A stretch of DNA of 13,324 bases from UHGV virus genome UHGV-1735583; one strand, 5' to 3'. Positions within the stretch are counted from its first letter, which is position 1, and every line of letters starts with the position of its first letter. Position numbers: made by a program. The stretch is from a virus. Of this stretch, positions 9,001 through 12,000 are shown in pieces.

Positions 9001-12000
9001 CTGATGCAGTGATTTCCTGTGCCCGGTTACTCATCTCGTAAAAATCGCCACCCACACCTTCAGCAGTGGATTCATCAAAAATAATGCACTCATCAGAGAC
9101 GGCATTAAGTGTACCGGTTCGCAGTTCTTTCGCCTTAGCCGGATATTTTGCGCAAATTTTGCCGTGCTCTGAGATATGCAGGCGCTGCACCGTACCTGAA
9201 CGGAATGAGGTTGCCACCTGGATACTCGAGCCGTGACCAAACAGGATATAGCCACCGCTGGCTCCGCTACGACGTTCAACGATGGTGAATGAGGCTCTCA
9301 GCCAGTCAGGAAGATGATCAAACGGTACAGCAATTTTGGTGCGGAAAATTTCACTGGCAGCCTGTTTATCCTGAGCGACAATCCCGCATTTGAGATGCGG
9401 TATGAATAATGCCTGGTCGAGAAGATAAATATCAATGGCCGTGGAAAACCCCAGCTGGCGTGCTTTCAGGATAATATTTTTATTGTGCATGCTCCGGAAC
9501 AACTGGCGCTGCGCCGGTCGCATTCTGAAGGTGACCAGCTCACCTTTTTCGTTCTGTATTTTGTAGAGATGATTGAGGCGCCACCAGGGATTGCTCAGTT
9601 TTGTCATAATGAACAGACGTTGTTCGGTCTCAGTCATTTCTGCAGATTCATCACATCGCGGTTTATTCTTCCGGAATGTCATCCAGTCTCCCCGAATTAC
9701 TCATTTCATGCAGCGATGACACGATGTCACTGACAGGCGTAACAACGCCCCGACGCTGGCTGGTCAGAATATCGGTTTCCGCTCTGAGTTTATCTCTGGC
9801 GGCGTTGATTCTTTCCCGGTCAGCACGAAGTTTTGGTGCTGTTTCCGCCAGAACGTCCAGCGTCAGCAATGAGCGTTCAATTGACTCGATACGGGCAATA
9901 TTCCGGTCAAGGGCCTGTTCTGCTTTGAGTATTTTGTCGTACAGGGCAACACGGGTTTCCACGTCAGCCGCCTCTTTCAGGTCGGCGAACATTTTTTTCA
10001 GTGTTCCTGTTACTGAAAGTGCGCGGGCACGGGTGAACACCAGTTCATCGAACAGCACCATATCGGACGCATCATCCATGAGGTTATCTGCCTCAAGATA
10101 CTTCGCATATCCACGGTGTCTCACGGCGTGGGTGTTACGGTCGCTAAACCGGGCAACGGGGTGAGGATTACCCGATCTGCTGTTGCGTTTCGTTTCTGCC
10201 GAATTTGCGCAGTTTTTTTCAGAATTTTTTGCGCATTTTTCATCGTCGGAACCCGCGTCATTGCTGGGTTCTTCATCTGAGATGTCATGATCGATTTCAT
10301 GATCGGTTTTATGATCGATTTCATGATCGATTTTGCCCATTTTTATACGGGTTCTGGCGGTGTTGTAATTAATCTTTTTCTTACGGCACCACTCCAGTAA
10401 TGTTATTCCCGTTTCGGCATGTTCGCGTCGGAATGCCTGCTCCAGTTTTTTCCAGTCCAGCTTTGCCATGTCACTTTCTGACGTCCTCTGTTAAAAACTG
10501 ACGCATAATGACCGCTGTGATTTTTCAGAATTCACACAGCAGCGTCTTGTTTGATTGATATTTACACAATATGGTTGTTTTATCCGGTTTCTTCCACCAC
10601 CGCACCGGACAGGCGGCCATGCGGGAAAACGCTCACGTTACCTGAAAACGTGGAAAGCCCGGTGTGCATCGTTTTTGATTATCCCCACACACTCGCGCAG
10701 GAGGTCCAGTGTCTGGCTGAGGTCTCTGTTAATGCGGGAATACTGCGACGATACGGCGCATGGCTATGTCAGGCTGAAATGCCTTTATCAAATCCGGGTA
10801 ACGCAATCTGCCCCTGCTGCTCCAGCCTGTCCAGCCTTGCCAGCAACTGAGGCTTCTTCACCCTGCCCCAGCGATTGAGCAAACGACCTGACATACTGGC
10901 GACATCTTTCTCTTTCATGTACTCCAGCATTACAGCGTTGCGCTCCGCCTCCAGATTCGCCAGACCTTGCTGAATAAGCTCAGCCATCCAGTTGAAAGCC
11001 TGAATGTACGCTTCCTTAAAGGTCATAGCAGCTTTCCCCGTAAAACCAAATACCAACATCGTCCAACCGTCTTTTGTCATTCGATATATGGGCTGGGGTT
11101 TACCGTTCTGTAACTCATTGTTTTCATAGCAAAGCGCAAAATTGCGCTCTGCAAATTCTTTTGAGCATTGTTGAACAACGGCTCTTGTTTTCCGCAATAC
11201 ATCTTTGTGTTCTTTGCCAAATGCTACGGCAACCTTTCGGGTATCCGTCACCGGCTCGTTGCCTGTCACAAAAACAAGATCGCGGAAATCAATACCGTTA
11301 ACAATCGTCGGATAGTTCATAGCGTCTTACCTTTCAGAAAATTGAGCCTGTCTCACAGAAAAGCCGCCCCGAGATGGTCGCCACCATATACGGCAGTTCT
11401 CAGGCTCAACTTTCTGAAAGGCTCGGGGATGTGATATGCGCGTGAGATGCGCGATGAAATTCAGATATGAAAAAGCCAGCGATTAAGCTGGCTCTGTTAA
11501 TTCAGGCACTGAGTGCGGATATATTCCTGTGCCCCTTCCAGCTGCTTCTGCATTGTCATCAACCGTTCTCTGAGGATGAAATAATCCCGTTCAGCGGTGT
11601 CTGCCAGTCGGGGGCCGGTTGCATTATCCATGCCGGAGGTGCCGGTGGCTTCACGCACGGTACCGGAGCAGGTGGCGTTGATCCGCAGGCGCTTACGACC
11701 AGCAGCAACATCAGCACGCAGAGTTTCATTTTCAGCTCTCGCATCGGCTAATTCCCTCGAGTATTTTGCATCGAGCGCAGCAACATCGCGCTGGCGCACC
11801 TGCATATCAGTAATGGTGGCGTTTGCCAGCTCCAGCTCTCTGGCTTTTTTATCGCGCTGCGCTTTGTAGGTGATGGCGTTATCGCGGTAATGGTCTGTTG
11901 CCAGCCACAGCGCACCACAGCCACCCGCCAGGACAATAATCACCACACACAGAACACGGCTCATCTCTCTTTCACCCCACCAGTCCCGATAACGTCAGGA

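Follow-up and report, generated by a model that had tools for sequence, protein, structure and literature searches.

RNA pairing at the ribosome-binding region is known to limit antirepressor synthesis in phages, as described for c4/icd-ant (P1, P7) and sar/ant (P22). In the IsrK–orf45–anrP unit of Gifsy-1, a helix of about 30 nt between upstream and downstream segments holds the mRNA translationally inactive, an alternative structure B has been described, and a terminator is part of the unit (PMC4825925). Here we describe a conserved structured mRNA leader of about 135 nt that precedes the rha gene on the minus strand (11318-11453) of the virus genome UHGV-1735583. The whole stretch of 13,324 nt that was analysed, called the window below, is part of the late operon of a lambdoid, Shiga-toxin (Stx)-type prophage. 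In this leader the Shine–Dalgarno (SD) sequence of rha is buried in a long helix, and a second conserved helix, called P1, competes with it. Leaders of this kind stand before antirepressor-like genes in hundreds of temperate enterobacterial phages, among them Shiga-toxin phages, phi80 and epsilon34.

The likeness to IsrK–orf45–anrP lies in a structured RNA placed directly 5' of an antirepressor-type gene in a lambdoid prophage. However, IsrK–orf45–anrP has its own promoter right after Q, gives a short, terminated, trans-acting small RNA (sRNA) and couples orf45 translationally to anrP, whereas the leader has neither promoter nor upstream open reading frame (ORF), holds the SD of the gene itself in a helix and lies far downstream in the late operon. 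The c4 and sar RNAs are separate antisense molecules of the immunity region (immI); pairing in the leader is, in contrast, intramolecular and takes place in the late operon, and covariance-model search finds the two unrelated. A homology with IsrK/C4 (clan CL00128 plus isrK) was considered and rejected, since the Gifsy-1 positive control was detected and the leader was not: RF01695, RF03163 and RF01394 all match Gifsy-1 upstream of anrP, the covariance model of the leader has no match in Gifsy-1, and Rfam gives no match in the window at the gathering threshold, only chance miRNA-like hairpin matches in 11250-11560 at E<=10, and no real match in 18 related loci. IsrK and C4 are analogues of the leader, not relatives.

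The MS2 maturation-protein gene and the hok mRNA with its metastable 5' hairpins are examples of kinetically controlled translation. As in these systems, the equilibrium fold of the leader hides the ribosome-binding site by long-distance pairing, a first-formed fold would give a time window, and the expression of a protein harmful in excess would be low and limited by transcript number. There is no homology between them, and kinetic control in the leader is suggested by two lines, prefix folding and the conservation of P1. A long interrupted stem beside the ribosome-binding site of a phage mRNA is also seen in the lambda N leader, T7 R1.1 and lambda sib, but leaders processed by RNase III have no counterpart of the conserved competing helix P1, and the stem of the present family is imperfect (17-19 bp). 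ROSE and FourU thermometers and riboswitch platforms likewise hold the SD in a helix, the stability of which sets translation and the opening of which is tuned by an adjacent mismatch. The helix of the leader is, however, far longer, without an aptamer-like core and without any link to heat-shock, virulence-thermosensing or metabolic genes; in the census of downstream genes given below, the association is exclusively with phage accessory regulators and nucleases.

Neither a 2025 review of phage small RNAs (PMC12197685) nor a survey of 224 motifs (PMC5737381) contains anything on this locus. The leader is rated as a new RNA family working by a known principle, undescribed in the literature covered, to which the original 1995 rha paper does not belong.

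The stem over the rha ribosome-binding site

The 176-nt gap between Rz and rha holds an inverted repeat. A repeat search gives two arms of 21 nt (11330-11350 and 11401-11421) that are 95% complementary and separated by 50 nt; the one non-Watson–Crick position reads as G:U on the minus strand, which is that of the late mRNA, so that 21 consecutive pairs can form in RNA. The 5' arm of this helix, P2, is CCUUUCAGAAAGUUGAGCCUG (11401-11421) and the 3' arm is CAGGCUCAAUUUUCUGAAAGG (11330-11350), both being supported by the minimum free energy (MFE) fold and by covariation as well as by the repeat search. The 3' arm terminates in GAAAGG, with the rha ATG following after 9 nt, and the SD sequence AAAGG (11330-11334) makes up its last 5 nt and the last five pairs of the 21-bp stem. 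Base composition predicts about 1.7e-5 such repeats per 13.3 kb (at most one mismatch, loop of 3-100). The minus-strand RNA of 11300-11500 folds at -76 kcal/mol, against -52.4 +/- 4.6 in 200 dinucleotide shuffles (z = -5.1), and the long stem is present in both the MFE and the centroid structure. The first-pass annotation had described the stem in these same terms, 21 bp around a 50-nt loop in the minus-strand RNA with the SD at the end of the 3' arm, and had read it as burying the rha ribosome-binding site; repeat search, strand reading and folding bear the description out, and this core reading also withstands the analysis of covariation given below.

The perfection of the stem, which had been stressed initially, is a feature of the Stx-phage lineage of the window and does not extend to the other members, all of which have imperfect stems. 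Among 29 distinct arm combinations, 21 uninterrupted pairs are found only in this lineage (-35.4 kcal/mol), whereas the stems of the others, with 17-19 pairs, are interrupted by a bulge or by 2-3 mismatches (-17 to -27 kcal/mol). What is common to all family types is the location of the SD inside the helix, as the last 4-5 nt of the 3' arm and 8-11 nt before the ATG. The computed cost of opening the segment from SD to AUG is 10.8 kcal/mol in the window, the highest value of 69 representatives (median 5.8, range 2.2-10.8).

A competing helix and its covariation

The inverted repeat is one helix of the larger leader. Above P2, the strands AGAA..GCCG (11391-11400, MFE) and CGGC..UUCU (11357-11366, MFE and covariation) form P4, which lengthens the stem; the stacking of P4 on P2 gives a rod of about 30 bp with interruptions. 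This rod is the full-length MFE structure in every type tested, 7-26 kcal/mol below the best fold with a free 3' arm. The 5' strand of P1, CCCCGAG (11422-11428), abuts the 5' arm and is complementary to the P1 3' strand CUCGGGG (11367-11373), which is apical and lies immediately 5' of the P4 3' strand; both strands are supported by covariation. P1 joins in this way the 7 nt that border the base of the rod to another 7 nt at the rod top, which are separated from the P4 3' strand by 0-2 nt, and because of these strand positions, a geometry deduced from alignments and folds, P1 and the rod (P2 and P4) are mutually exclusive. A pseudoknot combining P1 and the rod was rejected on geometry, given the 0-2 nt between the 3' strands of P1 and P4 and the length of the rod (about 30 bp). 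The P2 5' arm has an alternative too: its first part can pair with 11398-11403 as the hairpin P2' (UUUCAG/CUGAGA).

For the analysis of covariation, helix blocks were extracted by position and N-padded, only the register of the P1 3' strand being fitted, and 51 distinct helix haplotypes were compared. In these, 89.9% of the cells are paired against 77.5% in shuffles, and changes on both sides occur at 19 of 28 pairs. The covariation score of 0.381 (0.156 in shuffles) was reached by none of 500 shuffles, and slid controls gave at most 0.10. The rod (P2+P4a) shows changes on both sides at 13 of its 20 pairs, with 92.5% of the cells paired, which answers in the affirmative the question of covariation raised at first pass. 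In P1, 6 of 8 pairs are compensatory. The pairing of ccccgag with ctcgggg had already been noticed as an alternative to the stem; it is indeed present, with covariation as strong as that of the stem itself. The leader has thus two mutually exclusive helices, each with support from covariation, as expected of a two-state leader. As in cis-acting, SD-sequestering leaders generally, the SD lies in a helix of the same RNA and this helix is kept by compensatory substitution.

The individual replacements are extensive. Within the pattern-matched set the P1 5' strand takes 15 distinct 7-mer forms, each of which can form 5-7 bp with its own partner. Besides CCCCGAG/CUCGGGG of the window, the versions include CGAGAG/CUCUCG, CACAGAA/UUCUGUG, CUCAGAA/UUCUGAG, CCAAGAA/UUCUUGG, CCAAAGA/UCUUUGG and ACCCGAG/CUCGGGU, with AGAGAG/CUCUCU, GCAGAG/CUCUGC and CCACCGA/UCGGUGG in divergent copies. 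When loop segments were swapped, the mean P1 energy was -9.6 kcal/mol with the own segment versus -5.35 with those of other classes. In the divergent copy L179b the SD-proximal helix CCUUUCAG/CUAAAAGG is wholly exchanged for CACAUAG/CUAUGUG, and P4 occurs in the compensatory versions AGGA/UCCU, GGGA/UCCC, GGCA/UGCC and AGAAAUAUCGC/GUGAUAUUUCU. P2' is paired in 97.7% over the 51 haplotypes, with one-sided changes of the wobble type only (U-A<->U.G, G-C<->G.U). A C.A mismatch at rod pair 6 is shared (unpaired in 49 of the 51 haplotypes); its retention may come from the use of the C in P2', opposite a G, and from the position of the A in the SD context. With this single conserved mismatch excluded, the sense strand has 49 G:U cells, at 10 pair positions, versus 16 A.C cells; since G:U exceeds A.C on this strand, the late mRNA fits as the functional strand.

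A natural recombinant leader (L070:2519-2654) has a 5' part of the Stx2-phage-I type and a 3' part of the VT2-Sakai type. Its P1 strands are mismatched (CAAAGAA vs UUCUGUG), and it is possibly a ready-made P1 mutant.

Folding order and a possible translational lock

In computed folds, P1 belongs to the MFE structure of nascent prefixes only, starting when its 3' strand emerges. It persists over about 25 nt of growth in the ant types and over 7 nt in the window. In the ant type, the predicted fold of the 5' domain consists of P0, a hairpin described below, and a three-way junction closed by P1. For the direct path that leads from the P1 state into the rod, findpath gives barriers of 18-29 kcal/mol.

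We lean slightly towards reading the leader as a lock that acts in cis on the translation of an accessory gene and would open transiently or under regulation. The analysis shows the structure with its conservation and covariation, the mutual exclusion of the two folds, the SD within the helix and the association with the downstream genes; how translation is affected, in which order the RNA folds in the cell, what triggers opening and what purpose the lock serves are what we infer from these. In the ground state, the rod would pair the SD with the 5' arm, and ribosomes would be unable to load. In the alternative fold, P1 would close a junction that keeps the 5' arm in its own hairpin P2'. This fold can come first on the growing transcript because both P1 strands precede the 3' arm, and for as long as it lasts the 3' arm and the SD would be unpartnered. 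The outcome would be a brief or conditional burst of translation per transcript, followed by the lock. Upstream terminator and leader would together make a double lock, in which entry is limited to antiterminated late transcription and, even after entry, little product would come from a potentially harmful gene such as those of antirepressor-like regulators or homing-type nucleases.

Several points weigh against this reading. The translational effect and the in-cell structure are predictions from computed folds. The rod is far stabler than the P1 fold, so that P1 might be of no consequence as soon as the 3' arm has been made, and the findpath barriers are upper bounds that tell little of real refolding. 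P1 appears in the prefix MFE of the phi80 type for 2 nt only, and in that of the SPN3UB type never. Even when P1 is formed in the computed fold, other local hairpins take up part of the SD, and P1 therefore does not guarantee an open SD. The shared C.A mismatch would be G.U on the antisense strand, and the antisense duplex is often more stable by 3-7 kcal/mol. The pair counts, for their part, rest on helix blocks that were anchored by the authors, with a fitted register for the P1 3' strand, and the existence of two large clades means that many compensatory cells come from few events. A covariance-model alignment (Infernal, seeded with MAFFT) blurs P1 (65.8% paired); with RNAalifold, one MAFFT alignment yielded no structure for the 5' domain and another yielded only the top of the rod, P4 and P3. 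This loss of signal in RNAalifold is explained by loop-length variation, which shifts the 3' strands out of register.

A further idea, which we regard as rather doubtful, is that the leader represents a riboregulator class not recognised before, in which a trans factor flips the switch between P1 and the rod and provides a common release signal for antirepressor-type genes; this role could fall to a late protein of the phage, to an RNase or RNA-binding protein of the host, or to the 5' domain of a related leader from a co-resident prophage. If this were true, co-resident prophages would be coupled and the IHF-dependent Rha phenotype would be explained at the RNA level. Such a release would span Stx phages, phi80, P22-like phages and many prophages.

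Alternative explanations

A substrate of E. coli RNase III has to offer double-stranded RNA with few interruptions over about two helical turns (>=20 bp), and cleavage-activated translation is exemplified by the lambda N leader, T7 early mRNAs and adhE. Cutting of the rod by RNase III could free the SD by removing the 5' arm, or uncouple the stabilities of the lysis and rha/packaging messages. Taken over all the evidence this looks unlikely, yet it is compatible with the translational lock and plausible especially for the perfect stem of the window, where the 21 uninterrupted pairs continue into P4 and are long enough for a substrate. The SD of the window is also the tightest of the 69 representatives, and an active unlocking step would be sensible there. 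The norm of the family, an interrupted helix with internal loops, is besides what phage mRNAs typically show at single-strand RNase III sites. However, this norm consists of 17-19 bp with 2-3 mismatches or bulges, the perfect substrate not being the conserved feature, and cleavage leaves the covariation of P1 unexplained. The separation of lysis and packaging messages, for which RNase III processing had been proposed at first pass, is better assigned to the intrinsic terminator at 11466-11493.

It is improbable that the segment from P0 over P1 to the 5' arm accumulates as an sRNA, through processing or termination, and acts in trans on the leaders of its own or co-resident prophages. It would then resemble IsrK on isrK-orf45-anrP or c4 on icd-ant, with possible inter-phage cross-talk or immunity. 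The position ahead of antirepressor genes is the same as that of IsrK/C4 (PMC4825925), the base of the arm is nearly invariant over the types, and the leader occurs in multiple copies per genome, in tandem modules and as mixed ant- and rha-type copies in Stx phages. Against this, a promoter-like site is absent in or upstream of the leader in the window, the internal CGGC-UUUU is not kept as a terminator, and Rfam finds no C4 or IsrK match in the leader although the same search finds them in Gifsy-1. A weaker point comes from those Sp5 entries of PMC4104026 Table S2 that were covered, which refer to uninduced cells and on which the leader coordinates are unmapped: no Hfq-bound sRNA appears among them at the locus. 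In the part of the EcOnc table that was covered, no Sp5 peak is assigned to ant or rha.

An equally small chance is given to a factor-gated switch, in which a protein or small ligand binds P0, P1, the junction or the CUGUG bulge and the leader is a sensor rather than a timer. The gating factor could be encoded by host or phage. The conserved unpaired UCNCA loop of P0 and the invariant CUGUG bulge speak for such a factor, as does the strong conservation of P1 despite its thermodynamic disfavour. The ant-clade arm also offers a candidate site, CAGGAUG (e.g. L014:1232-1245), which we take to resemble the high-affinity GGA motif of CsrA; however, this motif is absent from the leader type of the window. 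Moreover, the downstream genes are too diverse for product-specific autoregulation, and the association with metabolic genes that is expected of a ligand riboswitch is absent. A harmful effect of Rha in hosts that lack IHF has been reported (as cited in PMC4936722), a phenotype that would suit a factor possibly downstream of IHF; no IHF consensus with at most one mismatch is, however, present in 11300-11500.

A DNA-level element without RNA function (the operator of a dimeric regulator, as also envisaged at first pass, a cruciform or a recombination 'boundary sequence') is very hard to maintain, for although operators are usually inverted repeats and the leader marks a mosaic joint, with homology from the terminator to the ATG, it is complementarity rather than sequence that is preserved, four helices change on both sides, sense-strand G:U is tolerated at 10 pair positions, the P1 half-sites lie 40-50 nt apart with one of them within the loop of the other repeat, and the 3' arm always overlaps the SD at a fixed distance from the ATG.

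Other elements of the leader and neighbouring genes

Rz is followed by an intrinsic terminator (11466-11493, minus strand), which is recognized from its sequence, as an MFE hairpin and by terminator scan; its hairpin AGCCAGC-UUAAUC-GCUGGCU (11474-11493) is followed by UUUUUCAU. The first element of the leader proper is the MFE hairpin P0, GCGC-AUCUCAC-GCGC (11438-11452), found in nearly all members, with GCGU/ACGC and GCGU/GCGC as variants. Its helix is 100% paired in the covariance-model alignment, with compensatory changes at 2 of 4 pairs, and its loop retains a UCNCA core across the family. The linker between P0 and P1 (11429-11437), delimited from alignments, is G-poor and rich in A, C and U; it varies in sequence and length and is single-stranded in all predicted folds. 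At the top of the rod, P3 (AUGGU-GGCG-ACCAU, 11374-11387; MFE and alifold) is an apical hairpin with an A-U/U-A exchange at one pair in alifold; it is optional, since short family members lack it. Between P4 and the 3' arm, alignments place a bulge of 6-7 nt (11351-11356), GUGAGA in the window, of which CUGUG is invariant in both clades. No pairing partner was found for this bulge or for the UCNCA loop.

A natural variant of P0 is seen in the Stx2_EH0505 group (L012), where one copy of the direct repeat GTGAKATGCGC, and with it half of P0, is lost through an 11-nt deletion in the segment aligned to 11431-11452; this P0-less form belongs to a large group of Stx2a phages that is otherwise 95.6% identical.

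Some further candidate functions were discarded. The inner GCCG...CGGC-UUUUCU is not retained as an intrinsic terminator or attenuator, its U-tract being replaced by AUUCC/GUCC in the ant clade; the hairpin is broken by a 3/7-nt internal loop, and the terminator scan did not report it. Coupling to a leader peptide or upstream ORF was rejected because the leader alignments contain no conserved short ORF: the leader type of the window has no AUG, and the frames opened by the AUG of the ant-type arm (CAGGAUGACC) vary in length and sequence among variants owing to indels. There is no sigma-70-like site for an own promoter in 10700-12100 on either strand, and in some phages there is no space for one, because the terminator T-run sits only 8 nt from P0. 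An IHF site within the leader was dismissed on the consensus search mentioned above. The anti-sRNAs AgvB and AsxR, suspected from the CA-rich linker, are RNAs of 51-60 nt from another locus, the moron site 3' of PR'.

Hypothetical-protein ORFs have been annotated over the leader, on either strand, at L003 1000-1158 (SPN3UB_0070), L015 793-984 (146851_sal5 ORF41) and L358 130-429 (PHI80_65). They are probably spurious, since the RNA structure is conserved and the reading frame is not.

The gene that follows the leader, rha (10769-11320, minus strand), encodes 183 amino acids with Phage_pRha and ORF11CD3 domains (Pfam, 4.6e-26 and 6.9e-24); its start codon (11318-11320) is also the end point of leader homology between different phages. 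Rz (11497-11964) and the lysozyme gene (12457-12990) lie upstream of the leader on the same minus strand, which also encodes a P22-type portal and all the other genes of the window. Beside the clearly P22-like portal are two large ORFs at the positions of the small (9663-10469, 268 amino acids) and the large terminase (7976-9682, 568 amino acids), both on the minus strand and without a Pfam match at E<=0.001. The interval between lysozyme and Rz contains two small hydrophobic ORFs (11972-12300, minus strand) of 60 (MEKYKRILL...) and 43 amino acids (MSDKLITLAK...), for which Pfam gave no match either. In Stx phages of the VT2-Sakai/933W type, this slot is occupied by a second leader copy and ant; neither BLAST nor the covariance model finds an ant-type leader copy there in the window.

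Distribution and cassette behaviour

The segment 11250-11520 (271 nt) is 99.6% identical to many Stx2a- and Stx1a-converting phages by BLAST, and an E. coli O26 chromosome matches a 160-nt leader query at 100% identity. In BLAST searches of phage genomes beyond these close relatives, the intergenic segment is almost the only part that is conserved in widely differing phages, at 77-87%. Carriers include phi80, epsilon34, SPN3UB, Sf101, HK639 and phages of Klebsiella, Enterobacter, Hafnia and Pantoea, with an identity of 77-100% over the phage set including the Stx phages. The similarity begins at the terminator and stops at the ATG, and the genes behind it are unrelated: Rha, P22-type Ant, ANT/KilAC, AntA, a KilA-N protein, and GIY-YIG-like and HNH nucleases. 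A more distant clade of the leader precedes ant, between R and Rz, in Stx phages of the VT2-Sakai/933W type and in many P22-like phages.

In IMG/VR, at least 259 leader copies were found by two pattern scans, at least 170 of them distinct. A covariance model built from 67 representatives finds one copy in the window (11318-11453, 125 bits) and additional divergent tandem copies in several phages. Among the matches listed, 237 complete ORFs follow leader copies: 180 are of the Rha family (173+7), 20 P22_AR_N, 12 MUG113/T5orf172 GIY-YIG-like, 9 ANT/KilAC, 9 HNH_3+AP2 and 3 AntA/AntB. Of 159 distinct upstream flanks, 124 have a hairpin with a T-run at a distance of 8-26 nt from P0, whatever the upstream gene, and most of the remaining flanks have a weaker or more distant one. 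From this survey of terminators and gene contexts, the unit of terminator, leader and gene therefore behaves as a cassette. Its sites in late operons are after Rz, between R and Rz, and after tail genes (Klebsiella phage).

Two or three tandem modules of leader and gene are present in several phages, the extra copies being divergent and often without P3 (L141 8514-8627; L159 3245-3358; L239 572-703; L032 2185-2323; L179 11112-11243). The second copy of phi80 (record 45240-45351, that is L358 141-252) precedes PHI80_66, which is N15 gp59-like. Lyz12581Vzw-like Stx phages hold both ant-type and rha-type copies, and up to four places per E. coli genome carry a leader.

Of 5,426 complete E. coli genomes, 944 carry a leader of the clade found in the window; O26/O157-type Stx prophages, CFT073 and E. 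coli W are among the carriers. In a collection with one genome per species, the model confirmed 32 pattern-matching loci, the other 65 pattern matches being due to chance; the confirmed loci come from about 20 named Enterobacterales genera and from unclassified or misbinned contigs. Four short contigs with a bona fide leader (L314, L322, L277, L330) stand in metagenome-assembled genomes labelled Bacillota, Collinsella or Cellvibrionaceae, and are most likely misbinned enterobacterial phage contigs.

Significance

As regards annotation, the leader is a family ready for a covariance model, and several spurious 'hypothetical protein' calls could be removed with it. As a natural two-state RNA in which selection is visible on both helices, it would also be a good system for the study of co-transcriptional folding. 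How rha is restrained has been an open question since the 1980s-90s, Rha blocking phage growth in IHF-deficient hosts, and the leader provides a mutable target for it. If the proposed lock is true, an unannotated structured RNA stands before antirepressor-like genes in a large share of temperate enterobacterial phages. Antirepressors can tip prophages to induction, which for Stx phages means toxin release. Because antirepressors can trigger induction in this way, an RNA lock on their genes would be relevant to the stability of prophages and to the cross-talk between co-resident ones.

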